Counted from the first letter of the stretch, positions 3,286 to 30,229 are shown. The stretch is DNA of 64,000 nucleotides from Chromatiaceae bacterium (GCA_019356535.1 CP037918.1:1332315-1396314); one strand, 5' to 3'. The notes: generated by a model from the letters alone, not told the origin. Numbers and translations are program-made.

Positions 3286-3301
3286 TGGTGCCCGGAGCCG
3301 G
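3286..3301. repeat. att core, 16-bp copy of the tRNA-Leu 3' end
   Basis: TGGTGCCCGGAGCCGG is identical to 30142-30157, in direct orientation. Confidence 0.9.
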
Positions 3302-3462
3302 CACCATTTGTTAGTGTTATATCAATGACTTATGATGAGAATGTGGCAATTTTGCGACACGCTTGTGCTCGTCTGAGCAAAACTGCAGCGCTGTAACGCT
3401 TGAGCTGAACGGCATTCCGCACCGGGTGTTCGGGCACGGTTTCCTGAGTGCATCGATTTCGA

Positions 3463-4021
3463 TTATTGCACATCACGCATCAGTGGCATGCGGGCCAGCA
3501 CGAAGTCCGCATCCGCCTCCGGTACGCTATACGCTTCGCAGTAGGATGAATACGACCGCACCTTGTCCGCGATCTGGGCCATGACCTCGCTGACGCGTCT
3601 TGGCCCCAGTCCGCACAAACGCCCGAGGTCACGCAGCGCATTCGGTGTCGGCCGATGCCCCGCGCTGCCAAAAATCAATACATGTTCCCGGTTGTCGTTC
3701 ACGTCCGGCAGGATGTCGAAGGCCGGCGTCAATCGCCATCCCCCGTCGCGCCACTGCATGGCAAAGTTCTTCAGGTGGTCATCGGTATTGGCCAGACAGG
3801 CGTTCAGTACGATCTGCCGAAACAGTTGCTCGAGATCCGCCTGTGGCGCCGATGAGACGTTCGCGACCCCCTGGATTACGTCGCAGTAACCGACCTGGTA
3901 GTACCCACGCGCATCCAACAGGGTTTTCAGCGACAGCATGTGCCGACGCCCCCCGGCGGGCGTCACATCGAAACGCTCGAGCAGGAGTGCCTTGCGATCC
4001 GCAGCGCTGACCACGCTTCGT
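3463..4021 (-). pseudogene. hipA: HipA-family kinase toxin, C-terminal half only
   Basis: LLLERFD, NTDDHLKN and LTPAFD motifs; reading frame runs directly into CRISPR repeat 1; no N-terminus or hipB. Confidence 0.85.
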
Positions 4022-6282
4022 GTCTTAATCCCCTTTCTATCGGGTCTGCCTTTCTACAGATGGCGACTATGTAATTGCCAGCAAGACTCGGGTCTTAATC
4101 CCCTTTCTATCGGGTCTGCCTTTCTACTTCCGCTATCCTGAAGTCTCAAGAGAAGAAAGCGTCTTAATCCCCTTTCTATCGGGTCTGCCTTTCTACAGAA
4201 GGATATCAGGAACTGTTCAAACTGATCTGGTCTTAATCCCCTTTCTATCGGGTCTGCCTTTCTACTGCACAAAGCACCGAGCACTGCAAGCACACAATGT
4301 CTTAATCCCCTTTCTGTCGGGTCTGCCTTTCTACGAGGCGAGGCAATGAAAACGTACAGCTTAGAAGTCTTAATCCCCTTTCTATCGGGTCTGCCTTTCT
4401 ACCGAACTGGTTAACCTGTTCTTCAAAATCGGGATGTCTTAATCCCCTTTCTATCGGGTCTGCCTTTCTACGCGGATATGAGCGCGGATCGTCAAAACTT
4501 GTTGCGTCTTAATCCCCTTTCTATCGGGTCTGCCTTTCTACGTGGAACGAAGATGAATTGCTTGCCCTTCGTGGTCTTAATCCCCTTTCTATCGGGTCTG
4601 CCTTTCTACGACGTGTACACGAAGAAAGTCGGCGACAAGACCGTCTTAATCCCCTTTCTATCGGGTCTGCCTTTCTACATCACGACGCCAGCGCCCAGGG
4701 CGCAATCCAATAGTCTTAATCCCCTTTCTATCGGGTCTGCCTTTCTACCCACCACCCGGTGGGCCGCGGGTCGGTCGTCATCGGTCTTAATCCCCTTTCT
4801 ATCGGGTCTGCCTTTCTACATCCAGGAGTTGTCCGACAAGATCCGCTCGCTGCGTCTTAATCCCCTTTCTATCGGGTCTGCCTTTCTACGCTATTGCAGC
4901 GTTCGCTATCACGGATAGCGAAGGTCTTAATCCCCTTTCTATCGGGTCTGCCTTTCTACGAGAGTGCAGTCTTCGATGCGTATCCCACAATGACGTCTTA
5001 ATCCCCTTTCTATCGGGTCTGCCTTTCTACTGAACGCCTATTCGATCTGACTCAGATCGACGGTCTTAATCCCCTTTCTATCGGGTCTGCCTTTCTACCA
5101 GAGTTGAAGAAAAGCTCGATAGAGCTGGTCGTCTTAATCCCCTTTCTATCGGGTCTGCCTTTCTACATGGACGCAGCAATAAAAATGCCTGAATCGTTAC
5201 GTCTTAATCCCCTTTCTATCGGGTCTGCCTTTCTACAACACTGAGAATGAAAGCGCGAAGCGTGCTATGTCTTAATCCCCTTTCTATCGGGTCTGCCTTT
5301 CTACTCCGAGCGTACTGAGCGCAAATTTGAAGATGGTGTCTTAATCCCCTTTCTATCGGGTCTGCCTTTCTACAGCGCAATAAAATGACAGAGCGCGCTC
5401 AGAAATGTCTTAATCCCCTTTCTATCGGGTCTGCCTTTCTACCTAAAATTGGTGATAAAAACTTTACATCAATTATGTCTTAATCCCCTTTCTATCGGGT
5501 CTGCCTTTCTACCTATTAAGATGGCCCGATATGGTGGTATGCATTCGTCTTAATCCCCTTTCTATCGGGTCTGCCTTTCTACTCTGGGCCTATGAAAACC
5601 GCTGGTTCGCCGACGGTCTTAATCCCCTTTCTATCGGGTCTGCCTTTCTACACCTGTGGGTGGACGACGTGCCGCCAGAGATGGCCGTCTTAATCCCCTT
5701 TCTATCGGGTCTGCCTTTCTACAGGTCGAGTGGACAAATGATGGCGTCGAAGCTGTGTCTTAATCCCCTTTCTATCGGGTCTGCCTTTCTACAAAAAGAA
5801 AAAGTAATTAGCTGTTCTTCTATATGGTCTTAATCCCCTTTCTATCGGGTCTGCCTTTCTACAGCTTCGTCGTCTCGCGTTGCACTCTGCGCTATCGTCT
5901 TAATCCCCTTTCTATCGGGTCTGCCTTTCTACTGCAATTCTGAGCAACATCGACGCAAACACCGGTCTTAATCCCCTTTCTATCGGGTCTGCCTTTCTAC
6001 GATTTGAGCGGCGCAATGGAGAACATCGCCCATATGTCTTAATCCCCTTTCTATCGGGTCTGCCTTTCTACTCAGGAGCGCGTATTACAGCGTTTATCGT
6101 CACGGGTCTTAATCCCCTTTCTATCGGGTCTGCCTTTCTACACATCATCACCGAAAACGATAGCGCGAAACGCGCGTCTTAATCCCCTTTCTATCGGGTC
6201 TGCCTTTCTACCCCACGGGATCTCTGTATGGGCATACAACGGGAACGTCTTAATCCCCTTTCTATCGGGTCTGCCTTTCTAC
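4022..6282 (-). CRISPR. CRISPR array 1: 33 repeats, 32 spacers (32-35 nt)
   Basis: 36-bp repeat, minus strand GTAGAAAGGCAGACCCGATAGAAAGGGGATTAAGAC; the ATTAAGAC 3' handle is typical of type III; one variant repeat at 4299; leader at the high-coordinate end. Confidence 0.99.
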
Positions 6283-6380
6283 CGTATGGCCATGTTTTCC
6301 CTTATTATTCATGCTGTTGCATCGGCAGTTAGGAAAACTTTTCGGCATTTCGAAGCTGTCCGGTGTTATCGTCTTCGGCA
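6283..6380 (-). promoter_or_regulatory. Leader of CRISPR array 1
   Basis: AT-richer non-coding stretch between the cas2 stop and the first repeat; shares a ~30-bp motif with leader 2. Confidence 0.75.
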
Positions 6381-6683
6381 TCACTCGCCACCTTCAAGGA
6401 TAGCAGACCATTCCGCTTCTTCGCCCAGGAACACGTCTTCCGGGAATCGCGTTTTACCGATATGAAGGCCGTCTGCCTGGTTCTGGAGCGGGTATATCCT
6501 GATATCGTCTTCATTGGTGATGACGGCGCGCAGATCGGCTACAAGCGCCTCCAGACGGGTTCTGCTGAGTTCTGCCAGGAACACCGAGTACTGCAGGGGT
6601 ATGCCGTAGTTCTTGCACGTCTTGTGGACCCGCACCAGACGACGGGGGTCGGCAATGTCGTAGGAAACCAAGTATCGCTTCAT
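6381..6683 (-). CDS. cas2: CRISPR-associated Cas2 (second copy)
   Basis: YLVSYDIADPRRLVRV...LQYSVF; ATG at 6683 overlaps the upstream stop (ATGA). Confidence 0.93.
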   Translation of the reverse strand: MKRYLVSYDIADPRRLVRVHKTCKNYGIPLQYSVFLAELSRTRLEALVADLRAVITNEDDIRIYPLQNQADGLHIGKTRFPEDVFLGEEAEWSAILEGGE

Positions 6684-7468
6684 GGGCAATCGCGGGTGGC
6701 TGTCCAGAGGTGAAGACGCGCCAGGGCCCGGCGGCCTGTCTCGTCCAGGGTGGGTTCGAGCTGCTGGTAGAACCAGGTCAGATGACGCTGCCGTTGCCGT
6801 TCATCATCGAAGGCCTTGCGGGCCGCGGGATAACGACGCAGCAACCCGGCCCAGTGAAGCAGAATCTTCCACTGCAGGATACCGGCGAGATCGGTGGGCA
6901 GGTCGATAATGCCACCGGTCAGGTGGGGAGTCTGCGCGCCGATGCCCAGGCGCATGAGCCGTTCGGTGGTCCAGGCAAGCGTCCTGGCGCGCAGATGTTC
7001 AATGCTGGCGATCACTGCCTGGCGTTTGAGCTGCCTGCCCACCGTCTCCAGGAGCAGCCGGTGTACCCGGTCGGGATCCGGCAGATGCCCCAGCCAGGGA
7101 TAGTGCCTTGCCAGGGCGAGCAGTTGCTCCCTCTGGTGGTGCGCGCACCAGTCGGCATAGCGCTCGGTGCCGTCGGCGCGGGCTAGAAGCTCCTCCAATT
7201 GCTGTACCAGCGAAGAGTGCTCGCCGCCGGCACCCAGCATGCGCGCCACAATCGTCCCTCGATCGTCGATGAAGATCACCGGGATGCCCTTGCCCAACAG
7301 GCAGAGCAATGCTTCCTGCTCCCAGAGGACCGCGGGGTGGCTGACCACGCGCGAGAGCCGTTCGACCGGATACAGCCGATCGGCCTCGTCTACGCACCGC
7401 ACCAGCAGCGCCGGTCCGTCCAGAAAGACACGGGCACCCTTCCGGCTTTCGAGATAGAGCGGTTTCAT
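6680..7468 (-). CDS. Divergent Cas1-like protein lacking catalytic motifs (262 aa)
   Basis: Cas1-type N-terminal beta domain (LYL...GARVFLDGPALLV...YPVERLSRVV...ALLCLLGKGIPVIFID..G); no EG..A..Y, no N..L..GY, no catalytic His; ATGA overlaps on both sides. Confidence 0.75.
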   Translation of the reverse strand: MKPLYLESRKGARVFLDGPALLVRCVDEADRLYPVERLSRVVSHPAVLWEQEALLCLLGKGIPVIFIDDRGTIVARMLGAGGEHSSLVQQLEELLARADGTERYADWCAHHQREQLLALARHYPWLGHLPDPDRVHRLLLETVGRQLKRQAVIASIEHLRARTLAWTTERLMRLGIGAQTPHLTGGIIDLPTDLAGILQWKILLHWAGLLRRYPAARKAFDDERQRQRHLTWFYQQLEPTLDETGRRALARLHLWTATRDCP

Positions 7469-8430
7469 GGGGTGCTGCTCCCTGTCGGCCCGAAGGTCGC
7501 GAATCGCCTGGCCAGGGTCATGGCGGCCCGGCGCAGGGCCCGCCGCGCCGGCTGTATGCGGCATTCATATGCCTGGTAGAAATGGCGCCGGCCCGCCTTG
7601 GACAACAGGCAGGCCTCGCCGTCCCGGGTGAAGTGCCTGGCGGTGATGAGTTGTTCACGGCACAAGTCCCAACAAAGGCGGTCGACCTGGGGGCGCAGCG
7701 GCTCGATCATGTCGGAGGCGAGCGACTCCCGACCGTACGCCGGTTGGTGATAGAAACCCAGGTAAGGGTCGAGGCCCGCCATCCAGACGGCCTTCACCGC
7801 CTCGCCATGCAGCAGGGTGTAGCCCAGCGACAGCAGCGCGTTGAACGGGTCCCTTGGGGGCCGCCGGTTGCGTCCGGAAAACCCGAGCGATGGGGGAAGT
7901 ATCGCTGCCAGCCCGGCAAAATAGGCCTGTGCCGCACCACCCTCCATCCCTAGCAAGGTCTGGACAGTCGGCTGCGGCTGTCTCGCCAGCCTCAGACGCG
8001 CCTCCCGCACAGACAAGATGGCCTTTCGCAGGGCCAGGCGGGCATCGCCCCGCGCCTCGGCGGCCCGTTCCAGAAACTGTTGCTGGCTGCGAAGCTTGAG
8101 CAACACCAGACGCTTACCCCACCCCGTCCGCCAGGCCAGATCGTCATACGCGCGGGCCTGGCCCAGCCGACGCCGGGCATCGTTGTGCAGAGGCCCGGTG
8201 AAACTACCCTGGAGCCGGTGGTGCCTGCCCGACAGGGTACTCAAGATGACGCCGTTGTCCGCCAGATGGCCCAGCACGCTGGTGTCGAGCGCCACCGTGC
8301 CGCGGATCACGATCCGGTCGAGCAGGTGCAGGGGCAGATTGCTGCGCCGTCCTTCCCGATCACGGATCACGATGCTGGCACCCTCACGCTCGATGGACGC
8401 CACCTGCCGATCCAGATACAAGGTGCTCAT
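7465..8430 (-). CDS. cas1: CRISPR-associated endonuclease Cas1
   Basis: LGMEGGAAQAYF, RPPRDPFNALLSLGY, GFYH and SLASDMIEPLRP are all intact; no RT domain. Confidence 0.97.
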   Translation of the reverse strand: MSTLYLDRQVASIEREGASIVIRDREGRRSNLPLHLLDRIVIRGTVALDTSVLGHLADNGVILSTLSGRHHRLQGSFTGPLHNDARRRLGQARAYDDLAWRTGWGKRLVLLKLRSQQQFLERAAEARGDARLALRKAILSVREARLRLARQPQPTVQTLLGMEGGAAQAYFAGLAAILPPSLGFSGRNRRPPRDPFNALLSLGYTLLHGEAVKAVWMAGLDPYLGFYHQPAYGRESLASDMIEPLRPQVDRLCWDLCREQLITARHFTRDGEACLLSKAGRRHFYQAYECRIQPARRALRRAAMTLARRFATFGPTGSSTP

Positions 8431-8436
8431 CCGCGC

Positions 8437-8721
8437 CTATCCCACGTAGAACCAGTCCGGGTCTGCCGGCGCGACGGCCTTGCCCAGCACGCGCGATTGC
8501 ATGCTCGGGTCGTGACGGATGAGCAGGAAGCGATCTTCTGTCTCATCGAGCAAGGCGCGCATTTCCTTGATAAGCCGCCAGTATTCGGCCGGTGTCAGAT
8601 AGCACTCGAACACCGACTTCTGGCGACCGCACGCATAACCCTTGAGGATCTTCAGGGCCTTGCGCAGGCGACGTGGGTCCGACACGTCATAGGCGGCAAT
8701 GTAGAGTCTGCGTGTGCTCAT
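8437..8721 (-). CDS. cas2: CRISPR-associated Cas2
   Basis: YIAAYDVSDPRRLRK...QKSVFEC; RBS GGGAG. Confidence 0.95.
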   Translation of the reverse strand: MSTRRLYIAAYDVSDPRRLRKALKILKGYACGRQKSVFECYLTPAEYWRLIKEMRALLDETEDRFLLIRHDPSMQSRVLGKAVAPADPDWFYVG

Positions 8722-8818: not shown

Positions 8819-9073
8819 TCAGTGAATTCGGCGTGTTGCACTGTCCGGGTCCGACGATTCGTCATCGGGGAAGGCCTCGTTCATGGCGTCGAACATCAGG
8901 TCCGCTGTCCTGAAGCAGGCCGCTACCACGTCTTCCGCGGGAACAGTGGAAAAGGCGGGATTGCGCAGCATTGCCGCCATAGCCCGGTTTGCGACTTCCC
9001 AGATCAGGTCCGATTTTCTCTGACGCATCGGATTCTCTACCTCGGTTCCGGCGACGGGGTGATCGAGGCTCAT
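8819..9073 (-). CDS. Small hypothetical protein upstream of the adaptation operon (~84 aa)
   Basis: GAGG then ATG (MSLDHPVAG...); helical-looking DLIWEVANRAMAAMLRNPAF segment; no family recognised. Confidence 0.5.
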   Translation of the reverse strand: MSLDHPVAGTEVENPMRQRKSDLIWEVANRAMAAMLRNPAFSTVPAEDVVAACFRTADLMFDAMNEAFPDDESSDPDSATRRIH

Positions 9074-9291
9074 CGATGACCGTTCCTCCAGATGCGCAAG
9101 CGACAAGGGCTGGCCATCGACGCCCGCTGCCCATTCTCTGCGTTCGCAATTCGTTCTTGGGAGACGGCAGGCTTGCCGACAACGCCCGTCGCACCAGACT
9201 GTTCTAGGATTCCCATGCGCAACAGGCAATGAAACACGGAGCATCAGCCGTGAACCCGTGCAGCTATTCCAGTGACGGCGATTGGGGCGAC

Positions 9292-9888
9292 ATGCTGGAC
9301 GACCAGGGCCCGGAATTCTGGGAGCATGTGTGCTGGCCCGCCGACGAGCTCATAGAGCATGATCACAATGACGTCTCCCCCGATGATCAGGAAGACCCCT
9401 TCTATGCATACGCCTACGAGGTCGTTTACAAAAAGGATGACAGCACCGAAGAACATGCTCCACCCTTGGCACTGCAGCAGTCTTCCGACGCCAAACAGGA
9501 GCGCCTGGAACAGAACCTGGCCGACTGGCAGCACTGGGCGCAACTCGATCACTTCGCCAGCGAGCCTTCCCCGGTAGATATCGAAAACCATTGTCAGGGA
9601 TCGTCACCTCTGGCCGCTTCGGCAGATCGTCGGGAGCAAATCCTGGCCTGGCTCCAGACATCGGACCTTGCGCGCCCATTTCGATCGCGAAACGGCTTTT
9701 TCATCCGCGGCGGTTCGACCGTCACCCTGCTCAATGGCAGAGAGCTGGACGCCATCCTTTGGCTGTTCTCCGAAGGGATCATCGGCGGCGCCCGTGTCGG
9801 AGGCTACGAAATCGTCTACAACGACGCCAAATCGCCCTGGGGAGAGAGCCTGTCCTTCTTCCCCTGTCGGGTGCCGGCGCCTTTCTGA
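9292..9888 (+). CDS. Hypothetical protein with an acidic N-terminus (start could be 9229)
   Basis: Open frame with a D/E-rich N-terminal half and a globular-looking C-terminal half; no family recognised. Confidence 0.6.
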   Translation: MLDDQGPEFWEHVCWPADELIEHDHNDVSPDDQEDPFYAYAYEVVYKKDDSTEEHAPPLALQQSSDAKQERLEQNLADWQHWAQLDHFASEPSPVDIENHCQGSSPLAASADRREQILAWLQTSDLARPFRSRNGFFIRGGSTVTLLNGRELDAILWLFSEGIIGGARVGGYEIVYNDAKSPWGESLSFFPCRVPAPF

Positions 9889-9939
9889 TGTCGTCCTTGG
9901 ACAAGGCTCCCGCCAGACATAACCGCGGCAGCACCCATG

Positions 9940-10290
9940 GGGTGATAACTCGAACAGGGTTGTTACGATCGCTAGTGCCAATGGCGGCCTGCACGCCATC
10001 GATCCTTCGGCCCTGCTGGACTGGGGTTCCCGGGTTCAACGATATCCTCGTCATCGTCGGCCTGAATGCCACTCCCTGGTCTTCCGCCTTGGCCTTCCCG
10101 GAGGGGATACCCTGAGACGCACCACCGGGCTGGTCCCGACCTGGCCAGTCACTGGTCGGCAAATCCCGGGCATACCCATCGATCATATGCCTGTATCGCC
10201 CCACTGGCACATCATCGACCAGGATGTGGGGCCGGACATCGGCTCCGGCCACGATCCCACCATCGCTCGTCCACCCCTGGAAAGTTTCTA
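9940..10290 (+). pseudogene. Possible degraded PilY1/PilC beta-propeller fragment
   Basis: Fragments across frames (ASANGGLHAID, PSALL, DILVIVGL, W..IDQDVGPDIGSGHDPTIAR) occur in the order of PilY1 motifs GANDGMLHAFD, PSAVL, TVLVGG, LWE..DLG...P.IAR; weak. Confidence 0.25.
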
Positions 10291-10416
10291 GTTCATTAAC
10301 TTCCTTGTATCAGATCTCGCCTGGGAACCTCCGAACAAGCTCCGATCCCCATTGCATGGAGGAGAAGAACGTGGATTTTTTTCAGGTATGTAATGACCCC
10401 CTAGTTTTTGCACACC

Positions 10417-11260: not shown

Positions 11261-11538
11261 TTTTTTATCGCTTTGAGCTCCAGTTCCTTCTCGCCCAAGG
11301 CCGCATATGCCTCCGCCAGCTTGCGCTCGTACTGTTCCCGAAGGTCTCGCGGGCGGGTTCGGAAGTTGTTCTCCATGCCCTGAATGCCTTCTTCCACCCA
11401 GCGCTCTACATCACCGGGGGTAAGGTCATGTTGCCGAGAAACCTCTGCGACCGTTGTCTTGCCTTTGAGAATATCCAGTACGACCTGCGTCTTGCGCTTG
11501 GCTGTCCACCGCTTGATCTCGTTTTCTTGCTTGTCCAC
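11227..11538 (-). CDS. IS3 transposase OrfA
   Basis: RWTAKRKTQVVLDILKGKTTVAEVSRQHDL HTH; overlaps orfB at an A-rich shift site. Confidence 0.88.
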   Translation of the reverse strand: MDKQENEIKRWTAKRKTQVVLDILKGKTTVAEVSRQHDLTPGDVERWVEEGIQGMENNFRTRPRDLREQYERKLAEAYAALGEKELELKAIKKWQRLLDEEES

Positions 11539-17846: not shown

Positions 17847-20285
<2,439 letters not shown>

Positions 20286-20289
<4 letters not shown>

Positions 20290-23198
20290 GCGGCATCCTC
20301 CCTGGTGTTGCGGTGGGCGGCCCCGGATACCCGGGTTTCGCGGGCCAGAAACTCGGCCACGGAGAGGAAGTTTTCGATCCAATCGAGGCGTTCATCCCGC
20401 CTGGCATGAATGATCGCCTGCTCGACCAGCGATCGGGCGAGCCCAGGCAGCTCATAATAGTCGCGGGTCGTCTTCTTATTGCACTGGCGTGCCAACTGAT
20501 AGGCCAGCAATTCGGCTACCATGGCACCGTCTCCCTCGGGCTCGGGCAGGTCACGCAACCAGAGCGCGCTGTTGTAGACGGCGCGACGCGATACGGACGG
20601 CTCAGCAAGGAAATCGCGTAGCCGCAGCAGCAGCCGCAACGGTTCGCCCCAGCGGGCAGTCAGGTGCAGCGCTCCGCCCGCCCGCTTGACGATGGTGATG
20701 GAGAAGGCATCGCGACCGCCCTCCTCCTTGGCGCGTTTCTCCGCCGCACGCAGCTCGCGCAACACTGCGCCCAATGGGGCCTGGTGGTGGGCGATTACCG
20801 CACCGCAGCTGGCCGTCGCCTGCTCGCCCATCAGCCGTAACAGCCGGCCTCGGTGCCGCACGAAGCCGTTGCCTTGCCGTTCGAAGCCGAGCTCGGCCTC
20901 CAGGCCAACCGCTTCGGGTGCTATCCCCGAATAGGCGGCGCGCGCCGAAGCCATCGCCGGCAACAGATCGATCACTGGCAGCATGGCCATCAGGTCGTCG
21001 CCGCCGGCATACAGAACGCGTCCATGGTGACGACGCTCGATCACTTCGGGGGCAAGTGTCAGCGCAAAATGGTTGAGCGCCTCGGAGATGGCCATGTGGC
21101 GTGACGGGCTGGGGGCGCGTTTCTCCCTGGCATAGGCGACAAAGTTCGGATCGTCCTCGAAGACGCGCAACGCGGCGCGGATCTGTGGATGGAAGCTGGT
21201 CTCGTGGGCCAAGGCCACCTCTCGGTCGGCCGACAACCAAGCTCCCATGCGGTCGCCGTCCATCAGCAGCAGGCCGTAGTAGGCTTCCGGTTTATGGCCA
21301 AGCCACGCTTCCAGTAATCGGGCTGCCTGGCGCTGTTGTGTTTCGTCCTCCGCTTCGCGCATCTCTTCCAGCCACCCTGGCAGGCGACGCAGCAACGCGC
21401 CGTCGGGATGATCGCGCAGTGCCGCCGAGAGCTTGCGCGGCAGTGCGACCCGCTCGTCGTGGCTGGCGGCGATCTTCTCGCGCAGTGCTCGGGAGAACTC
21501 ATGCCCGGCATTCAGCGCATTGGCGATGGACCCGGCCAGCGCCATGGTGTGAGTGCTGACCACGAAACGGTTGAAACCCTGATCCACCAGATCACCCAGC
21601 TCACGCACGAACAGCGTCGGCCAGAGGCGCTTGAGCGTGTTGAGTGCACCGAGGTGTTCGCCCTTTCTGGCCCAAGCGGGCTTATTGTCGGCGACCTTGG
21701 TCCACAAGGTCTCTTCGTGCTCGCCTTCCCTGAAACCCTTGTCTTGACGACTCTTCCTCTTGCCCTGCGGCAGGTCAAGCTGATCACAATCGGTGGTGAG
21801 CCACTCGGCCTCGCCTGACAGCGAATCGCGCCAGCCTTTCTGTTGCAGCTGGGCGAAGGGTCGAGCCGACTTGGTCGCAGCCACCAGGCGCTCCAGCAAC
21901 TCGTGCAGGGCCGGGTAGAGGCTGCCGGGATTGGGCCGCCAGAACCATCCCTGCTCCAGCTCGATGCCGCCGGATAGCAACCGCCAGGCCTCGCTGCCTA
22001 GATAGCCGGGCGGGCTGGACGCGAAGAAGGGCCGCATCGCCTCGGCCAGCCGAGTGTCGCTGGCCGCTACCCTGCCATCTTTGTCGGTTCCCACCAGCGA
22101 CCAAGGCACCGCAGCCCAGTGCACTTCTGGGAAGCCGGCGAGCTGCTCGCGGATCTGCCGATAGCCCGGCAGCTTGGGGTCGTCACCGATGCCGGCTGCC
22201 TCCAGCAGCAGACGGAAGGCCTCGTCGGCCCGCTCCCGCGCCCAGTCGCGAACCCGTTGGGTGATCGTCTCGGCAATCTCGCGCGCCTGGCCCGCCGGTA
22301 CGATGGCAGTGAACCGGTTGGGCAACGCGGCGCCGAACAGCGGATTGGCATCGGACTTGGACCGGGTCCAGTCACATCCCTCGAACAGTTCCGGGCGCAG
22401 GCCCATGGTCTCGCGTAACCACAGATCGATCTGGGGCACGCCACGCAGGCGCGGAAACAGGATCGCCTCGGGGCCGAGTCGTTCGCAGACCACCCGCATT
22501 GCCTCCCAGCTCATGCGCGAGAGCAGATGTGAACCGGCCCAGAGGTCGGAGGTGGTGCGAGCGCTGGCGATGAACTCCTGTACGGGGCCGAGGGAGACGG
22601 CCAGTAACGCCGGGCCACCCTCGCCACTGACAAAACAACCCGCCAGCGCCACAGTCAAATCGAGATGGTCGTGGATACTGTGATCAGGTACCCGAGTATC
22701 GGCCGGCAGTTGCGCCCAGAGGCTCTTGATCTGCTCGGCCTCTACCTCAGGGCCAAAGCGCCAGAAGGCAAGCGCGGTCTTTTGCAGGTCGTCCGGGTGT
22801 ATCAAGCCACGCAGGTGATCCAGTGCCAGCGCCTTGGCCTGTTCCGGTGTAATGTCGCTCAGCCGGCCGATATCGAAGGCTTCACCGGTGAGAGGATGGA
22901 CGATCACCGGACTTTCATGGAAGCGAACCTGCTGCCAGCGCGGATAGCCATGCTCACCGTCACGGTTCGGAAAGGCAGCGCGATCGGCAGCGGAGGCCCA
23001 GTGATCGGCCTGTTTCACCGCGTGGGCCACCATGGGCGGCAAGTCGCTCAGGCCCAGGTCTTGTCTCAACGTGGCCGAAGTACCTCCCTCGTGCCCCTCG
23101 GCGGAACGCATCAGGATCAGCGCCTTCTCGATAGGATCGTGCAGGCGAGCGGCGAGCTTAGTTTGCCAGAGCTTATTATTGTCCCTTTGATCGCTCAT
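20286..23198 (-). CDS. cas10: Cas10/Cmr2 large subunit with intact palm domain
   Basis: LHDP, DTRVPDHSI, DLWAGSHLLS, MDGDRMG, YAGGDDL. Confidence 0.97.
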
Positions 23199-24256
23199 GA
23201 TTGACTCCTCTTCACTCGCTTTGCCTCATCAAGATAGGCATGCACCTGCGACCAGACCTCTTCGATGGCACCGAGGTCGGGCTGGAACTGCCGCGGCGGC
23301 CTGCAGGGGAGGTGGAAGATCCGACCGTACAGCCTGCCATCTTCCCCCTGCACCACCTTGAAACGGAGGCTGTTGGGGAGGCGGGCATTACGATCCCACC
23401 GTTTGGTCCCGTGGTTTGTTACCGGATAGGCCAACCAATGTCGGTCTTCCACCTGGCGATGCGGCGGCTTTTCCTTGGGAAAGCGGAAGCGAGTGCGCAG
23501 GTCGATCTTGATCTCCGCCAGCCGCCTCATGAGCTGCTGCCAGTCGTCGAAGGGATCGGTCTGCCAGATCAGGACGCCCTTTCCATCCTTGCCGATGGCA
23601 TGGGGCCAGTCACGATCCAGACATTCGCGCCAATCACGCAGCGGATACTTACCGTCTGACAGGTCGCCGGCGAGGGAGAGCGAGCCCCAACCATTGCGCG
23701 AGCGTCCACCCAGCGCGCCAAAGGCGTCGATCAAGAACAGCGCCCTGTCGAGCAACTCGGCGTCGACAGCAGGGAAGGCCAGGCGCAGGGTGGCCTGTTC
23801 GCCTGCCTGGATGGCGGCGTTCGTCTTCAGGGCCGTCCGCCTTGACTGCCTGTCGTAAGTCAGCGGACCAAACCCGAGATAGAGGTCAGCCCCAACCGAC
23901 CGGCCTACCTCCGGATGGCTCACTTTCCCGATCTCATTCCATTCCGAACGCCTCAGCTTGCCGGTGCTCCATTTATCCAGCCGCAACCGCACGCGACTGC
24001 GATTGCCGCTGCCGTCGGCGGCAGTGCCGAACAGCGCCCCCTCCTGCTCACGCAGGCTCCGGTAGTCGTTTGAAAAACCATTGGCTTCCGCCCAGGCCAC
24101 CCGCCACCACTCGCGCAGCAGGTGCTTGAAAGGTGGCGCGCGCCACTGGCCGTCCTGCTCGGCGTTGCCGAGAAAGGCAGGTGTAACGAAGCGGATCGTG
24201 AACTGCCGGGTTTCCATCCGGCCTTGAAGCGATTTGGTCATGGCTTGGGCCGTCAT
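23195..24256 (-). CDS. cmr1: Type III-B RAMP Cmr1
   Basis: FVTPAFLG, LREWWR, LFG, ALGGRSRNGWGSL. Confidence 0.94.
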   Translation of the reverse strand: MTAQAMTKSLQGRMETRQFTIRFVTPAFLGNAEQDGQWRAPPFKHLLREWWRVAWAEANGFSNDYRSLREQEGALFGTAADGSGNRSRVRLRLDKWSTGKLRRSEWNEIGKVSHPEVGRSVGADLYLGFGPLTYDRQSRRTALKTNAAIQAGEQATLRLAFPAVDAELLDRALFLIDAFGALGGRSRNGWGSLSLAGDLSDGKYPLRDWRECLDRDWPHAIGKDGKGVLIWQTDPFDDWQQLMRRLAEIKIDLRTRFRFPKEKPPHRQVEDRHWLAYPVTNHGTKRWDRNARLPNSLRFKVVQGEDGRLYGRIFHLPCRPPRQFQPDLGAIEEVWSQVHAYLDEAKRVKRSQS

Positions 24257-25437
24257 GTCGGGTCCTCCTCCGGGTGTTCATTTTGTGCCTTGTGATCGCC
24301 GAGACCGGCTCCGGCAAGCCTGCCGAACCGCACCGCATCCCGCGGCAGCTTGAGGCTGTAGCGCCGCGGCCGGGTGCCACCGTCGTCGATGTAATACAGC
24401 CGGGCCACCGCCCCTAGGCGGTTCTTGAGGATGCGGTGCAGTTTGCTCTTGGTACTGGAGAAATACTCACCGTCCATGCCGTCGCGCAGGGCCTGTTCGG
24501 TGCGCTCGATGTCATCCAGCGCATTCCCTCGGATCACGCGATATTGCGCCAGAAAGCGTTCTGACCAGACCTTGTCGGGGGCGTACTTGCCCGGCGCCGC
24601 CAAGGCTTCATCCCCTTGTATCAGGCGTTGCGCAAACAGGCTCAGCAGGGCCAGCTGCGCCGGCGGCAGTTCAATCAATGTGCCGCCGGCGAGAATGCGT
24701 TTGCCTTCGCGATCGATCACTAGCTCCGGCGGCTGCAGAGCACGTTGCGCGGCCGCCACCGCCTCGGAGAAGGTCGCCCCGCCCTGCCGCAGCCCGTCGT
24801 CCAGGCCATGCCGCAAGCGCACGAAGGGAATCTCGGCCAGTTCGACCTGTGCATCCCGGGTGTCGGCAAGCTTGTTGTCGCGGGTGGTGATGACCCGGGC
24901 ATACGGGGTCGGGTAGAAGAAGTCCCAGCTCGACTCATAGGGCTCGCTCACCAGCACGTGGGACAGGCGGTCCTGCGGGCGACCGAACAGGGAAAGCGCA
25001 TAACCCAGGTAGAAGCCCATGGTCTTTCGCCCGCCCGCAATGGAAACATGCAGAGCGGCTTTCTCGTCGGCGGTGAATTCCCGGACCTTTTCGGTGACCC
25101 GATCGGCCAGCCGCTCATTGTCCGCCGGGGTACGGATGTCATCGAGCGCCTTACCCTGCTCGTCCGCGATCGTGTGGATATGGCTGGCATCGAAAAGGAT
25201 GGGCGGCAGCCCGTAGTCGCCACAAAGGCGATGGAACCAGCCTGGATCCTCCGACAGCAGGGCCAGTTCGGCGCGCTGCTTTCCTTCAGCCGTGGTGAGC
25301 AAGTGGATCTCGGTTGGAACGAAGAGGGGATCACGCCGCACAGCCAGCGCATACAAAGTTTCGGTAACCACCTGAGGGCTCAGTCCAGTGACCGCCAGCA
25401 GAATCCGCCGGGAATATTGCTCAGGCCGACTGTGCAT
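24253..25437 (-). CDS. NE0113-family CARF protein (putative ring nuclease) with C-terminal winged-helix-like domain
   Basis: ILLAVTGLSPQVVTETLYAL, SIAGGRKTMG, LSHVLVS, FFYP; extra ~120-aa C-terminal domain. Confidence 0.85.
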   Translation of the reverse strand: MHSRPEQYSRRILLAVTGLSPQVVTETLYALAVRRDPLFVPTEIHLLTTAEGKQRAELALLSEDPGWFHRLCGDYGLPPILFDASHIHTIADEQGKALDDIRTPADNERLADRVTEKVREFTADEKAALHVSIAGGRKTMGFYLGYALSLFGRPQDRLSHVLVSEPYESSWDFFYPTPYARVITTRDNKLADTRDAQVELAEIPFVRLRHGLDDGLRQGGATFSEAVAAAQRALQPPELVIDREGKRILAGGTLIELPPAQLALLSLFAQRLIQGDEALAAPGKYAPDKVWSERFLAQYRVIRGNALDDIERTEQALRDGMDGEYFSSTKSKLHRILKNRLGAVARLYYIDDGGTRPRRYSLKLPRDAVRFGRLAGAGLGDHKAQNEHPEEDPT

Positions 25438-25550
25438 CGGATCGCTTACCTTCCCTCTCCGTCGAAAACGGTGCGGGGGGCGTCCATGCGCTTGCCCTGG
25501 CCCCTTCCCGGACCGCCCCGCTGCGGAACAGTGTGCCCGGCGACCTCCAT

Positions 25551-26495
25551 TCAGTGGGCCTCCCGCAAGCTTGCCGCGACCAAGCGATACCGTCCCAGGC
25601 CCATGCTGGTGAACTTCCCCAGGTGCAGCCATTGGCCCAGCCACAGGAGGGGCCACCAATCAGCGAAGCCATCACCGGACAGGGCTATCCGGCCCATCAG
25701 GCCACCAACTTGCATGCGTGTCTTCTGGCGCGAGGAATAACGTGACCAGTCCTGCCAGACAAGCTCGCTTTCGACCTTCAGGCCGAGATCACGTGCCCTG
25801 CCCAGCGACTCCCTCGGCGGGCGCTCGCCAATCAGTTCATAAACGCGATAGAGCAGGCTCTCGAACAGCATGGCCGGCACGAACTGATCCGGGCGCACCA
25901 AATGTCCCCGTCGTTTGAAACGCCAGGGTGTTGCCCATTCCAGCACCACATGGCCGGGCCAGGGCGGCGGCTGAATTGCGGCAGGCACAGGCGGAGCGGT
26001 CAACACGTTTCCATCGTAGACCGAATGCCAGTTGTCTCCGCCCAAGGTGCCAAGCGCGGCCAGTTCATCGACATCGAATCCGACATTCTTAGGCCCAAGT
26101 CCCAGGCGCCCCCCAGCCTGGAACGCCTGCACCAGGTAAGGAAGTTCCCGGTCGTGAGGCGACAGCAGGCTCATCTCAAAAGTGAAGCGCCCACCCTTTG
26201 GATAATGCCGTCTCCCGGACTCTGAAACGCTCAATACATACGGAACCCTGACCGAGCCGCTGATATGCGATGTAGGCTCGAACAGCCGGGTATAGACACA
26301 TGAATCGGTCAGGGGACAGTCAGCGCAGGTTTTGCGGCGGGTCACACAGGCAGTTCGCCGAAGACCGTGTCCAAGTAGCCCACGCAGGGCCGAACCGAGG
26401 TACGGTGGGGCATCGAAGGGCTGTGCGAAGCAAAGCGTCCAACGCAGCCGGTACAAGGCGGGGAAACGATCAAGTATTTCCAAGGACGAATCCAT
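25551..26495 (-). CDS. cas6: crRNA-processing endoribonuclease Cas6
   Basis: GSALRGLLG, C..C Zn-like insert, C-terminal G-loop HLGKFTSMGLG. Confidence 0.93.
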   Translation of the reverse strand: MDSSLEILDRFPALYRLRWTLCFAQPFDAPPYLGSALRGLLGHGLRRTACVTRRKTCADCPLTDSCVYTRLFEPTSHISGSVRVPYVLSVSESGRRHYPKGGRFTFEMSLLSPHDRELPYLVQAFQAGGRLGLGPKNVGFDVDELAALGTLGGDNWHSVYDGNVLTAPPVPAAIQPPPWPGHVVLEWATPWRFKRRGHLVRPDQFVPAMLFESLLYRVYELIGERPPRESLGRARDLGLKVESELVWQDWSRYSSRQKTRMQVGGLMGRIALSGDGFADWWPLLWLGQWLHLGKFTSMGLGRYRLVAASLREAH

Positions 26496-26661
26496 TGCCT
26501 TTCCTGGGTTTTCCGCAACTCAGTCTACCTTCTGTCCGGCTCGATCGAAAGCGTGGCAAGCCTGCCAGGCCCTCCTTCATTCCAGCTTGCCGCGATTCGG
26601 CCGGAATTGCGGATACCGGCGGGCCAGCAGGACTCCCCCACCCGAAACGCTTCAAGCGGGA

Positions 26662-26831
26662 TTGCACTACTCCCCGCTGGCTCGCAGCGCAAGACAACTT
26701 CCGCAAATGGCTCAGTGCCGCGTTCGGATGCTCGCTTTGTTTCCCCGCAGGCTGCGCACGCGCACGTCAGCAAAGCAGCCTCGCCTCGCGACTACCAGAG
26801 ACTACCCGCCTTCGCTTCGCTCTCCTTGGCG
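26662..26831. repeat. Dispersed ~170-bp repeat, copy 1
   Basis: 78/85 identity to 34908-34992, with similarity continuing to ~170 bp. Confidence 0.85.
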
Positions 26832-27257
26832 ATCAGCGGAAGGTGGTGGCTTCACAGCTCATCCCCTTGCAGCCCTCTTGGCACCCATGGATGGCCTCCT
26901 CGCGCGCCCCCCTGATCCTGATACTCAATGGTCAGTCGTTCCAGCTTCCGGGGCAGGCTGCAGTATAAGGGTGGGTCGTCGCAGATTCTGCTGCCACTAC
27001 GCCTCCAGGGGTCTGCATGAAGGCGCCGAGTTGATTGGGAACGAAGTCGGCGCTGCCGTGCTTTTTCTCCAGCGCCAGGGCGAAGTCGAGGTAGTCTGGC
27101 ATCGCTGAGGGACGAAAATATCCTCCTTGAGCCTAACATAGCTCTCCCTGCAGTAGCTTAGGGACTCCACCTAATGGGCACACCGCCCATACAGGTAGGC
27201 GCGTACCGCGGGACCCAAGCCCTTTGCCTAGAGCCTATTTCAGGAAGGTAGCGCCCC

Positions 27258-27577
27258 CGTTACGTCTGAAATCAAGTTTCATATATAATGGGGGGAGCCG
27301 TGCTCAGCGACCCCGAAATCCTGCAAATACGACATGTCGAAAATCGGCGCGAACCTCAACACGAAAATCCACCCTGAAATCCACAAAAAACATCACACGC
27401 CCTCCCATTCACCAACAAAAGAGAGGACCCAAAAGTGCGGCTAACACCGCCAGGGGAAGATCCCAAACCACGCAGCAAGCGATTCTCCTGACACCACCAG
27501 GGAAAGAGGCTCATAAGAGCGCCAGACACACCCCACATAGGCCGCAACAGACCCCTAACCACACCAAAAAAGTTACA
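27258..27577. repeat. Left arm of a diverged ~320-bp inverted repeat
   Basis: Reverse complement matches 28613-28934: 51/70 gapless at the outer end, 14/14 at the inner end. Confidence 0.7.
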
Positions 27578-27733
27578 TTGTGAACTCCCTTTTGGCCCAG
27601 ATGGGCCCACAAGAATTCCAGCAAGACTGAATGCCACCAAAGAAGAAGGTTTCAAAGCATTGAAGACATGATGCGAAATTGAAATGTTTCGGACCCAAAA
27701 CGCTGCAGCTGCGCACCGGGAAACCCATGCACT

Positions 27734-28200
27734 GGCGGCTTCATGCTGGCTTGGTACTTGCCTTCCATGCCCTTCATTCTGTGGACTTTTGAGGTGGTTG
27801 GCTGGGTGGTGCTGGTCGTCGAGATGGTGATTGCTGCCCTACTCTGGGCCATTGCACACGGCATGACCGAAGGCGAAGGGGCAGTCGGCCAGAGCGCTAA
27901 ACAGGGCTATCTGCTGTTCCTGCGGGCCGCCCTGCAGCCTGCGATCATGGTGGTCGCCTTCTGGCTGGCGATGGTGGTACTGGTGCCGGTTTCGCGTTTC
28001 GTGGCCAAATGATTCCTGGTGTTCTTTGAAGGCTTGACCCATGGCGTCTACTTCTTCATGGGCTTCATTGCGATGATCTTCATTGGCGGCGGACTGATGG
28101 TGAGCGTTACGCACAAGGTCTGCGGCTGGGTGACTTGGTTGCCGACCAACATTTTCCGCTGGATTGGTGGCTCTGCACATGATCTGGGCAGCGCGCACGA
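27734..28200 (+). pseudogene. DotA/TraY-family type IVB conjugation protein, C-terminal fragment
   Basis: LAWYLPSMPFILW..VVGW.VLVVE.VIA.LLWA.AH...GEG..G..A.QGYLL...QP..MV and LP..IFRWIG; internal TGA at 28010. Confidence 0.8.
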
Positions 28201-28410
28201 AGTGGATCGTGCGAAGACCATGTGGTGGGTGCTGTGGGCGGACTGGGCCATGGCGCGAGTGACACAACCCCGCATCTCGAACCTGTTTCGCGGTCGCCTC
28301 TCCCTAATACAAGAGAGCTTCGGCCACGCCTGCCCAAGCGGACATTTTTTATCCGGACCGCCCCAGCGAAGGTAGGATCGCATGCGGCGTTTGGGGCATC
28401 ACAGGGGTCT

Positions 28411-28629
28411 CTGGCGTCCCCGTGTAACTTTTTTGGAAGAACCCTGGCTTTCCAGACCCCTCTGAGAGGGGGCACAGACCCCTCAGTGAGGGATCAGCTA
28501 CCGCCTGGCGTTCCCCGTGTAACTTTTTTGGAAGAACCCTGGCTTTCCAGACCCCTCTGAGAGGGGTCACAGACCCCTCAGTGAGGGGTCAGCTACCGCC
28601 TAGCGCCGCCCGTGTAACTTTTTTGGAAG
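28411..28629. repeat. Tandem 94-95 bp repeats (2 full, 1 partial), each full unit with two GACCCCTC..GAGGG palindromes
   Basis: Units start at 28411, 28505 and 28600; shared GTGTAACTTTTTTGGAAG. Confidence 0.92.
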
Positions 28630-28934
28630 GATTTCGCCCCTTGGAGGGGTGGAATTTCCCCTTTCGTGTGCGTCAGCAGCCCCCCCCTAATCGCCCGATG
28701 TCGCGTAAATCGCCTGCGGTCTGGTTCGAGGTGAGCTCCCTGTCGGTGTGCGCCGGGGTTTGGAGCCTCTCTATCGGTGGCGGTAGCGGGGGGTCTGAGT
28801 GATTTTTGCGGTATTTCGGCAGGCTCGAGGGCGAGATTCTCGCACCGCGAAGCGGTGTACCCTTTTTGCAGAAAATCCGGGTCGCCGCGCACGTCTCCCC
28901 CCGTTACTGCTTAAAACCGTTTTCAGCAGTAACG
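28613..28934. repeat. Right arm of the diverged inverted repeat, ending in a 33-bp palindrome (28902-28934)
   Basis: CGTTACTGC-N15-GCAGTAACG immediately downstream of the integrase stop. Confidence 0.7.
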
Positions 28935-28941
28935 CTATCAA

Positions 28942-29988
28942 TCATCCCAACAACTCCACCAACGACGCCGGATCCTCACGGTAATACGTGTTGAGCAGTA
29001 GCTTGAGATCACGGTGCCCGGACACTCGCGCCAGCTGCATGACATCCAGCTTCCGCGACAGGCGGGTCAGAGCCTCAGCTCGGGTGTCGTGGAAGTGGAG
29101 ATCTTCGATGGCAGCCCGGTCTCGAATTTTGCGCCACATGGCATCCAACCGGCGTGCTTTCAATCCGAAAACACGCCCGTCGCCGCTCGGATCTTCGGCA
29201 GCCAGTGCTTGACGCAACAGCGCAACCGCTCGGCTCGACAAAGGGACGGTGCGTGCGAGCCCAGTTTTGCGCGCGCCCTGCTCTTTAGCCCGCACATGCG
29301 CTACATATTTGCCAAAGTCGATGTCATCATGCCGTAGCGCGCAGATCTCGCCCGCACGCATGGCGGTCTCCAAGGCGAACAAGAATGCCAGCGCAACGCG
29401 CTGCGACACCGTCGCCGGCGGCTCGTCCGGTGTGTAGCCGGCGACGAGCAGCACCCGGTTGATTTCCTCATCCGTCACGCGCCGCGTGCGCGGCGGCGGG
29501 GGTTTCGGGCGGGAAACCTGCGACATCGGATTGTTCGGTAACCAACGCCATTCTTTCACCGCGCGCGTGCAGACAGCAGAAAGCAGATTCCATTCGCGCA
29601 GCACGGTTGCCTCTGAGACCTCTTTCAAGCGCCGATCTCGCCAGTCGGCAAAATGCTCGGGTCCCAGGTCGGAGAGCAATACTTGAGCAAGAGGGTCAGG
29701 GTCGCGATCTGGCTCACGCTTCGTCGGCTCGCCAAGCAATTTTGCGATGCGCAGAAATTCCCACCGCCCTCCATCTCGCTTCCGCGAGACCTCCTCGCAA
29801 TAGCGCTTCAGCGCGTCACTGAAGGGGCGCCGTGGGGCAATGCCGGCGCGACGCTCCTCGATGTCGCGTTCGATGTTGGCTGCCCAGACTTCTGCCTCTC
29901 GTCGGGTGCGGAAGCTTCTTGACACATTGTGTCCGGCCCGTCGAACCCGCGCTGTCCAGCCTTTTTCCCTTCGCCAGATCGTTGCCAT
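28942..29988 (-). CDS. Tyrosine recombinase/integrase (348 aa)
   Basis: Catalytic set R (AMRAGEI), HxxR (HFHDTR), H (SGH), Y (NTYY); adjacent to tRNA-Leu. Confidence 0.95.
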   Translation of the reverse strand: MATIWRREKGWTARVRRAGHNVSRSFRTRREAEVWAANIERDIEERRAGIAPRRPFSDALKRYCEEVSRKRDGGRWEFLRIAKLLGEPTKREPDRDPDPLAQVLLSDLGPEHFADWRDRRLKEVSEATVLREWNLLSAVCTRAVKEWRWLPNNPMSQVSRPKPPPPRTRRVTDEEINRVLLVAGYTPDEPPATVSQRVALAFLFALETAMRAGEICALRHDDIDFGKYVAHVRAKEQGARKTGLARTVPLSSRAVALLRQALAAEDPSGDGRVFGLKARRLDAMWRKIRDRAAIEDLHFHDTRAEALTRLSRKLDVMQLARVSGHRDLKLLLNTYYREDPASLVELLG

Positions 29989-30003
29989 ATCTTCTCCCGC
30001 CTT

Positions 30004-30042
30004 GTGACACTGCTCGTGACAATGCTGTGACAACTTGTGTCA
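30004..30042. promoter_or_regulatory. Putative integrase arm-type sites (GTGACA x3, 11-12 bp spacing)
   Basis: GTGACA at 30004, 30016, 30027; one-mismatch variants GTGGCA/GCGACA at 3343/3354 inside the other island end. Confidence 0.5.
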
Positions 30043-30141
30043 GATATGAGCGGATACTAGCGGATTTGTGCAGACAAGGGAAAGAAGAAATAGCGAGAAA
30101 ACAGCCAGTTACGATCATGTCGCAACTGGCTTGACCGGCGT

Positions 30142-30229
30142 TGGTGCCCGGAGCCGGAATCGAACCGGCACGGCCGCAGTGGCCGGCAGATTTTAAGTCT
30201 GCTGCGTCTACCAGTTTCGCCATCCGGGC
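30142..30229 (-). tRNA. tRNA-Leu (TAA)
   Basis: GCCCGGATGGCGAAACTGGTAGACGC...GACTTAAAATC...GGTTCGATTCC...CACCA; long variable arm. Confidence 0.98.

Follow-up and report, generated by a model that had tools for sequence, protein, structure and literature searches.

We analyzed a stretch of 64,000 nucleotides from the genome of a Chromatiaceae bacterium (GCA_019356535.1, CP037918.1:1332315-1396314, or G000:C1:1332315-1396314 in our numbering; hereafter the window), which hosts a type III-B CRISPR-Cas cassette with a Cad1 protein beside a tRNA-Leu(UAA) gene. The genome (G000) is 2,745,378 bp long, and nine congeners formed the comparison set. The features of the locus are listed in Table 1, in window coordinates. 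Between two copies of the 3' end of the tRNA gene lie the adaptation genes, both CRISPR arrays, the interference genes and three CARF proteins, together with an intact tyrosine integrase gene that adjoins the tRNA gene and a relic of dotA/traY. An earlier note on this DNA had listed the same components and had read them as one island able to excise as a circle. The components were all recovered, and the island they form is larger and more composite than the one that had been proposed.

The combination of a Cas10 cyclase palm, Cmr1, Cmr3, Cmr4, Cmr5 and Cmr6, cas6, two arrays and an adaptation module identifies this system as type III-B; judging by its gene content the cassette is complete and apparently functional. 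For the Cmr proteins, Pfam returned Cmr2_N and palm2, Cas_Cmr3 and three RAMP proteins, and cmr5 was assigned through the PF09701 match of a homologue. In the Cas10/Cmr2 protein the GGDD motif stands at residue 732, and the HD motif at residue 20. Cad1 joins a Cas_NE0113 domain (residues 38-169) to an A_deaminase domain (residues 389-674; TIGR01430, E 1e-43), and both domains are present in several hundred full-length homologues. The second protein of the NE0113 type is named a ring nuclease by the NCBI model. Within the adaptation module, 6680-7564 returned a weak Cas1 match and cas2' is 90% identical to the Pfam-labelled Cas2 of a metagenomic locus (L145). The IS3-family element that follows the module has a second copy at G000 2265386-2266474. 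When the spacers were compared with the host genome and all fetched loci, nothing was found beyond chance matches of 17-18 nt.

Table 1. Features of the tRNA-Leu locus in window coordinates
Feature	Position	Strand	Remarks
Malate synthase G (glcB)	307-2508	+	Pfam MS_TIM-barrel E 1e-66; right-hand gene of unit A
IS3-family orfA remnant	2734-3040	-	Truncates second integrase gene; right boundary approximate
int' remnant	3059-3151	-	~30 N-terminal codons; second integrase of the same family as the intact one
Diverged integrase-proximal (P) arm copy	~3128-3285		Global alignment; just left of internal att
Internal att core	3286-3301		Exact 16-bp copy of tRNA-Leu 3' end; junction of units A and B
Distal (P'-type) arm of unit B	3302-3463		162 bp; kept with att and hipA in relatives
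hipA'	3463-4014	-	C-terminal 183 codons, HipA toxin kinase; Pfam HipA_C E 6e-29
CRISPR array 1	4022-6282		33 repeats of 36 nt, 32 spacers
Adaptation module cas2'-cas1'-cas1-cas2	6381-8721	-	Pfam Cas1 E 2e-77, Cas2 E 3e-15
IS3-family element	10389-11600	-	Between adaptation module and array 2; orfA 11227-11538, orfB/rve 10601-11260; boundaries approximate
CRISPR array 2	11641-13122		22 repeats
Cad1, CARF and adenosine deaminase fusion	13268-15343	-	691 aa; Pfam A_deaminase E 6e-43 and Cas_NE0113
TM1812-family (DxTHG) CARF protein	15340-16599	-	NCBIfam TIGR02221 E 1e-46
cmr6, cmr5, cmr4, cmr3, cmr2/cas10, cmr1	16565-24256	-	Pfam
NE0113-family CARF protein, Csm6-like	24253-25659	-	Pfam E 8e-50; TIGR02584 E 1e-74
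cas6	25551-26495	-	Pfam
DotA/TraY C-terminal pseudogene	27683-28375	+	Relic of conjugative element; NCBIfam TIGR04346
Tyrosine integrase, HI_1572-like, intact	28942-30033	-	Pfam Phage_integrase E 1e-21; 363 codons
Integrase-proximal arm	29989-30141		Three GTGACA repeats; 88% conserved beside tRNA-Leu in G007
tRNA-Leu(UAA) (taa)	30142-30229	-	ARAGORN; followed by tRNA-Cys and tRNA-Gly

Attachment sites and tandem structure

The last 16 nucleotides of tRNA-Leu (30142-30157; TGGTGCCCGGAGCCGG on the plus strand) form the attachment (att) core. In agreement with the earlier note, the same sequence recurs exactly at 3286-3301, and these are its only two exact copies in the whole genome. With up to two mismatches permitted, just 1 of 100 shuffles contained two matches to the 16-mer. 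In two congeners the site is empty. The core flank gene, which encodes a truncated globin and has dksA and gluQ upstream, ends 19 bp from the tRNA-Leu 3' end in G003, and the core flank directly adjoins an inverted tRNA-Leu in G006. The complete genome of G007 (~93% identical to G000) has just 6.7 kb between the core flank and tRNA-Leu, and G004 has ~30 kb of unrelated DNA in this place. The empty sites and the differing contents of G004 and G007 indicate that the tRNA-Leu site is a hot spot, and that the DNA beside the tRNA gene was inserted.

The inserted DNA extends well beyond the two exact repeats. Homology with the flank stops at G000 1326209 (window position -6105), off the window and 9.4 kb left of the repeat at 3286, and this breakpoint is common to G000, G007, G009 and a G002-like metagenomic contig. 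Ten base pairs past the stop codon of the flank gene we detected a third copy of att (TGGCGCCCGCAGACGG), which matches the core at 13 of 16 positions; the chance of such a match within 60 positions is ~2e-3. The flank breakpoint and the decayed outer att together define an insertion of 36,256 bp with three att copies (G000 1326216-1362471). Since the empty sites of G003 and G006 match the tRNA end and the outer degenerate att, they bound the whole 36.3-kb array. The earlier claim of an island integrated at tRNA-Leu is therefore borne out as to insertion, by these empty sites and by an integrase clade found beside tRNA-Leu (see below); its extent has to be corrected from 26.9 kb to 36.3 kb, as the variable region does not end at 3286.

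The internal site has the structure of a junction. Just left of it, 3128-3285 aligns globally with the DNA at the integrase end (29968-30141) with a score of 23.5, compared to 6.65 +/- 2.47 (maximum 17) in 300 shuffles. Beside this diverged arm lies the stub of a second integrase gene, int', where residues 13-43 of the intact integrase align at 3151-3059 with 48% identity (tblastn). The start motif ATGGCAACGATC (MATI) is common to int' and the intact gene, and both arms contain GATCGTTGCCAT, which is the reverse complement of this start. The second integrase gene is cut short by the remnant of an IS3 orfA. In the open reading frame (ORF) 2734-3267 on the minus strand, which has an HTH_Tnp_1 match, the translation changes from integrase-like to IS3 OrfA-like, and the nearest relative (L159, 96.6% nucleotide identity to G000) is without 2765-3071.

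The same junction is retained in relatives. L159 has glcB, the integrase stub with its arm, an att with one mismatch and the 162-bp distal arm, followed by full-length hipA-hipB-sortase. L161, a G002-like contig, has a 27-residue integrase fragment, the exact att, the 162 bp and hipA. The distal arm is 94% and 90% identical to that of G000 in L159 and L161, respectively. The internal site thus runs from an integrase stub through an integrase-side arm and the core to the 162-bp distal arm. This order is an attP-type layout, the signature of two islands integrated in tandem, and because of the arm copy and the second-integrase stub left of 3286 we describe the locus as a tandem array. Two pattern scans of metagenomes for the att/P'-arm junction were empty, and they likewise missed the JGI contigs known to bear it.

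Arm repeats resembling GTGACA had been proposed inside both ends of the 26.9-kb segment. At the right end this holds, with three exact copies at 30003-30035. The left-end candidates (3302-3463) were rejected as evidence, as two one-mismatch words in 162 bp compare with ~1.5 expected, and k-mers common to this end and the right arm are no commoner than in shuffles. The right arm does have a homologous counterpart on the left, at ~3128-3285, and it lies outside the left repeat, not inside it.

Given this structure, we hardly credit the idea that the CRISPR locus is a piece of ordinary ancestral chromosome, with a 16-bp repeat that matches by chance or stems from a stray tRNA fragment. The core is short, as that idea would have it, but it occurs just twice in 2.75 Mb, homologous arms flank both copies, congeners have empty sites and a third, decayed copy lies at the flank.

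Anatomically, 3286-30157 is an att-bounded unit of 26.9 kb, proximal to the tRNA gene, which we call unit B. The distal unit A spans window positions -6098 to 3285, and ends with the decayed integrase stub and arm at the internal att and with the 13/16 copy of att at the core flank. Its cargo genes, in the order mqo-aceK-aceA-RraA-like-glcB (Pfam labels via homologous contigs), comprise the only intact copies of mqo, aceK, aceA and glcB in G000, where a broken glcB is also found at 1084161-1085371.

Several related observations concern this cargo and the tRNA genes. The aceK-aceA-RraA-like-glcB block measures ~6.5-6.8 kb and is 93-96% identical between genomes, and its neighbours differ in G000 (1326380-1334822), G007, G002 and G008. 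In G007 the block sits in a 9.45-kb insert (L026/L023, G007 1782175-1791620), at whose boundaries the 3' end of tRNA-Lys is directly repeated over 22 bp with one mismatch; the corresponding site of G000 is empty. The tRNA-Leu gene of G006 (L030 4431-4518) is inverted relative to tRNA-Cys/Gly and the flank, with an island on neither side. tRNA-Cys is also targeted: in G002 ~14.4 kb follow it and end in a partial copy of the gene (L025, C43 4047-18558). The gap between tRNA-Cys and tRNA-Leu is 4-5 kb in G007 (L021 5547-9714) and G003 (L029 10016-14656), and 283 bp in G000.

The integrase and the search for mobility genes

The integrase gene likely starts with the ATG at 29988, 153 bp from the tRNA 3' end. 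All residues of the catalytic set R..K..HxxR..H..Y can be read in the translation, in the motifs AMRAGE, KTGLARTVPL (K), HFHDTR, GHRD and NTYY, so that the description of the gene as intact can stand. None of the nine congeners has this integrase, and its exact sequence, taken with two alternative start codons, matched no record. The nearest relatives are metagenomic proteins with 71%, 65% and 63% identity, and relatives that are 55-58% identical are publicly annotated as 'integrase/recombinase HI_1572'. We examined 80 loci of genomic relatives of the integrase. Most of the closer ones have a tRNA-Leu gene 150-250 bp upstream, at least eight share the Gly-Cys-Leu(taa) cluster, and none of the 80 has a cas homologue within 10 kb. 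The cargo at the three nearest metagenomic loci is prophage-like or of other kinds. From its tRNA-Leu neighbourhood and the lack of cas genes in the 80 loci we conclude that the integrase belongs to a family of tRNA-Leu integrases, and is not a habitual carrier of CRISPR systems.

The dotA/traY relic had also been recognized correctly. It consists of two pieces with a stop codon between them, 27683-28012 corresponding to positions 510-599 of TIGR04346 (E 8e-29) and 28013-28375 to positions 614-656. Of the gene, which is cut at its 5' end, just the last ~150 codons are left, corresponding to profile positions 510-656 of 656. Beyond this C-terminal part, no relaxase and no intact gene for transfer or a type IV secretion system (T4SS) turned up in Pfam scans. 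No excisionase (HTH_17, AlpA, Xis) was matched among the ORFs of 26470-28910 and the other unassigned ORFs, even at E 0.1, in a profile search that could miss very small or novel factors. Apart from IS3 orfA, no domain was recognized in the ORFs without assignment at 26470-28910 and 8819-11629. Between the dotA relic and the integrase gene there is a 95-bp tandem repeat (28411-28629; 2.3 copies, 94% matches) with the palindrome CAGACCCCTCAGAGAGGGGTCA inside.

The cassette in relatives and the history of the array

Cad1 and the cmr genes occur in four congeners, with 91-95% nucleotide identity in G002 (GCA_964394235.1) and 69-77% in G005, G009 and G001. As no congener has the integrase, the cassette is not tied to it. 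G000, two G002 loci and G009 agree in where the cassette ends on the right (~26555-26575), and each has different DNA beyond this point. A 50.8-kb contig from a G002-like population (JGI 3300023507) begins on the left with the dksA-gluQ-globin flank and continues with a 79-aa ORF, CRISPR1, cas2'-cas1 remnant-cas2, CRISPR2 and cad1...cas6; after cas6 it has hipA-hipB-sortase-VWA-HTH, aceK-aceA-RraA-glcB and DUF4325. By this order, the cassette of the sister species belongs to the same tRNA-Leu-linked region and occupies the flank end of it. An intact hipA lies to the right of the cassette, and neither att nor integrase is beside it.

In a metagenomic population (ENA ERZ26859067) and an NCBI metagenome-assembled genome, the cassette is ~90% identical to that of G000. 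In ERZ26859067 it is followed on the cas6 side by peptidase M16 genes, an SBP gene and an IS21 fragment, and on the other side by DUF2924 and a large serine recombinase. Nothing in G000 or its congeners closely matches these flanks (at most 72% alike). No plasmid of PLSDB matched 7 kb of the cassette. The search for the same cassette at tRNA-Leu elsewhere, which the earlier note had suggested, thus returned the same tRNA-Leu region in the sister species, although at its opposite end, and an unrelated setting beside a serine recombinase in the metagenomic lineage. The CRISPR system is cargo of the tRNA-Leu island in so far as it lies inside an att-bounded unit, but, as the four congeners indicate, it is not bound to the integrase of that unit.

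Sequence composition changes at the right edge of the cassette. The cas genes have 64.5-64.8% GC, compared to 64.0% for the genome, and lie between the 36th and 65th percentile of tetranucleotide composition among windows of the same length. The stretch from cas6 to the integrase gene (26560-28941) has 58.3% GC and lies at the 96.5th percentile; the integrase gene itself has 62.0% GC and lies at the 83rd.

The left edge of the cassette is marked by hipA', which is truncated at its 5' end, at a distance of 5 bp from the last repeat of CRISPR1. Full-length hipA-hipB is present in G007, L159, L161 and L162, and since hipA is intact in L159, the truncation against CRISPR1 is specific to the G000 lineage. 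G007 is also informative about the age of the scaffold. It has a full hipA with 93% identity and, beside tRNA-Leu, 129 bp of the integrase-proximal arm with 88% identity; there are no cas genes, and the end of an IS3 transposase stands in the place expected for the integrase. On the simplest reading of the arm and hipA in G007, the scaffold of the island was in place before G000 and G007 separated.

Taken together, these data suggest that the segment between the exact repeats is unit B of a two-unit island array, and that the cassette is a separate module not imported with the integrase. We hold this to be probable. The array would have been built by site-specific integration at the tRNA-Leu(UAA) 3' end, and the cargo of unit B would be a mosaic of the dotA/traY relic, the truncated hipA, the IS3 element and the type III-B cassette. 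The cassette would be native to the genus, where it shuffles separately, and would have come to lie in unit B when the tRNA-Leu variable region was rearranged. What we observed is the anatomy, together with the empty sites, the tandem structure and the other contexts of the cassette; we infer the order of events, and also that the array is now largely fixed, with integrase-driven excision at a low level at most.

Another history, close to that of the earlier note, takes 3286-30157 as one discrete island derived from an integrative and conjugative element (ICE), competent for excision, which arrived whole and can leave as a 26.9-kb circle to immunize a new host. We consider it unlikely. The exact cores, the intact integrase with all its catalytic residues, and the conjugative ancestry attested by the DotA/TraY relic speak for it, as does the internal attP-type junction, which means that the att/integrase system worked in this lineage. 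Moreover, the cassette has moved between lineages, being ~90% identical where its flanks are at most 72% alike. However, the link between this integrase and the cassette was found nowhere else, neither in the nine congeners nor in the 80 loci of integrase relatives nor with the three nearest metagenomic integrases. The boundaries of the cassette, at 4022 and ~26560, lie inside the unit, and the cas genes are host-like in composition whereas the stretch 26560-28941 is not. The profile scans brought up neither an excisionase nor a relaxase nor an intact T4SS gene, and the arm and hipA common to G007 place the scaffold before the species split.

The compositional break at ~26560 also bears on a third history, in which a separate ICE integrated at tRNA-Leu later on and the module from the integrase to dotA' (~26575-30141) is its stump, the distal att of this ICE having been lost in a deletion that fused it to an older region. 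The core at 3286 would then be the scar of an earlier island, and the cassette would never have been cargo of the present integrase. Besides the break, this history accounts for the right boundary of the cassette being common to genomes free of the integrase, for the cut 5' end of dotA, and for the core at 3286 having its own integrase stub. Nevertheless the arm at 3286 is homologous to that of the present integrase, which points to one integrase family able to use either core, and G007 already has the arm at tRNA-Leu, so that the module is no recent arrival. We judge this history to be improbable; it departs from the two-unit array with a separate cassette in the order of events alone.

The reading as a two-unit array with a separately moving cassette is itself faced with several difficulties. 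Units A and B are defined anatomically, and we found no genome among the congeners and fetched relatives that lacks exactly one of them, and hence no presence/absence polymorphism of exactly either unit. The identity of the cores at 16 of 16 positions and the intact integrase also fit a still-active unit. The breakpoint at the hipA stop codon is nucleotide-exact in three genomes (window 3463/3464; L021 16604; L044 199), and its left-hand neighbour differs: G000, L159 and L161 have the 162-bp arm there, G007 has the core flank, and G002 and L162 have the region upstream of cas6. A plain deletion model explains the common breakpoint only in part. We could reconstruct no route that placed the cassette to the right of hipA' in G000 and to the left of hipA in the sister species, and the drafts available for the relatives' genomes are fragmented. 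A simple circular permutation and a single deletion were both considered as ways from the sister-species order to that of G000, and neither agrees with the observed gene orders. The G007 arrangement could have arisen from a G002-like order through deletion between short GCG/ACG homologies; no single step was found that leads from either of these two arrangements to that of G000.

Whether unit B is still mobile can be judged from the same evidence. Through recombination between the two identical cores (3286 and 30142), the integrase could release 26.9 kb. Excision at a useful frequency at present seems doubtful to us, and self-transfer of the element very unlikely, because neither a directionality factor nor a transfer apparatus was detected and a sister species has the scaffold too. 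Were excision to be demonstrated, the locus would offer a natural means of moving a pre-loaded type III system. A broader proposal is that a single family of tRNA-Leu integrase islands has interchangeable cargo, namely the III-B/Cad1 cassette, the hipBA-sortase-VWA block and the glyoxylate-shunt operon, which is the only working one of the cell, and that the vehicle is still active, its modules being re-ordered through repeated excision, tandem re-integration and deletion. We give this proposal a low probability; if true, core metabolism and adaptive immunity would share one vehicle in an uncultured gammaproteobacterial genus.

Predicted immunity and comparison with known islands

From the domain content and the literature, the cassette is expected to act as follows. 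Cas6 would cut CRISPR RNAs (crRNAs) out of both arrays, and with these as guides the Cmr complex would find its target transcripts. Cas10 would then use its GGDD palm to make cyclic oligoadenylates, which would activate Cad1 to convert ATP to ITP and arrest growth, and would also activate the CARF proteins of the TM1812 and NE0113 types. For the Cad1 proteins of type III systems, ATP-to-ITP conversion with growth arrest has been described (Baca et al. 2024, PMC11645235; see also PMC12669630 and PMC12993439). The activity that defines Cad1 is this deamination, carried out in a hexamer and dependent on cA4 or cA6, and by likeness of domains the same activity is likely for the Cad1 described here. 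Compared with its characterized counterparts from other organisms, the present protein is 691 aa long and is accompanied by two further CARF proteins.

CRISPR-bearing islands at tRNA genes are already known, Vibrio included. In Vibrio metoecus a tRNA-Leu locus bears a 26-kb island with a type III-A system, and several other CRISPR-bearing islands at tRNA genes have been described (McDonald et al. 2019, PMC6360697). The V. metoecus island resembles unit B in its type III system, its size of ~26 kb, its tRNA-Leu gene, an integrase at one end and a transposase inside. It differs in being III-A rather than III-B and in belonging to another host class, and its report describes no Cad1, tandem second unit or conjugative relic (PMC6360697). 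The island GI-24 of Vibrio cholerae carries type I-E CRISPR-Cas between attL and attR, and an excision assay was reported for it (PMC6360697). Like GI-24, unit B has a complete CRISPR-Cas system within an att-bounded tyrosine-integrase island, but the CRISPR type differs and excision of unit B is putative.

Immune systems also travel on conjugative elements. pKLC102-like ICEs of Pseudomonas aeruginosa carry type I-C systems. A Campylobacter ICE is described as carrying CRISPR-Cas9 (PMC8743540). With these ICEs the present locus shares an immune system as cargo of an integrating element with conjugative ancestry. They keep a full transfer apparatus, whereas here just the end of dotA/traY is left. 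Tandem accretion of integrative elements at one att site is known from streptococcal ICEs and IMEs (integrative and mobilizable elements) and from enterobacterial tRNA-gene islands. As in those cases, two units here have a common internal att, with the integrase end of one abutting the distal arm of the next. Unlike them, one unit carries the glyoxylate shunt and the other adaptive immunity, and the distal integrase was destroyed by an insertion sequence (IS).

What is particular to this locus is the type III-B system with Cad1 and two more CARF proteins, the preserved attP-type junction and the neighbouring unit with the glyoxylate shunt. Since comparable Vibrio islands have been described, the gain is incremental. 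The locus shows how such a region is built, as a tandem, IS-eroded array rather than as one neat mobile cassette, in which modules for immunity, a toxin-antitoxin pair and the glyoxylate shunt change order between sister species. It also calls for caution, as a perfect att repeat and an integrase are no proof that the cargo arrived together with them or is able to leave.

We made some further observations on the cassette itself. The cas10 region (20155-23222) of G000 is ~65-68% identical in nucleotides to that of G002 and of the metagenomic alleles, and the flanking cas genes are 88-95% identical; G002 and the metagenomic type share 93.5% identity straight across cas10. The difference looks like an allele replacement limited to cas10. 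In relatives (L143-L158; L165 14631-14976), a VapB/PIN toxin-antitoxin pair or its remnants lies between cmr1 and cmr2, and there is none in G000. In two other loci (L144, ENA ctg51688, 226214-248289; and G002 C53, L047 1454-5490), csm-type genes (Csm1_B, Csm2, RAMPs) replace cmr, with the same NE0113 CARF gene on one side of the exchange and the same TM1812-cad1 pair on the other. This is a swap of type III-A and III-B effector modules within a constant frame of ancillary genes. The ERZ26859067 contig ctg51688_3550x_c (L144/L145/L153; 300.7 kb, labelled circular, ~3550x) has two copies of the Cad1 cassette, both followed by DUF2924 and a large serine recombinase within IS-rich DNA, and it may be a megaplasmid or an assembly collapse. 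Finally, a repeat of ~170 bp at 26662-26831 and 34908-35075 (80% identical) recurs beside the cassette in the metagenomic loci L144/L145, and may be an element of the repetitive extragenic palindromic (REP) or miniature inverted-repeat transposable element (MITE) kind.

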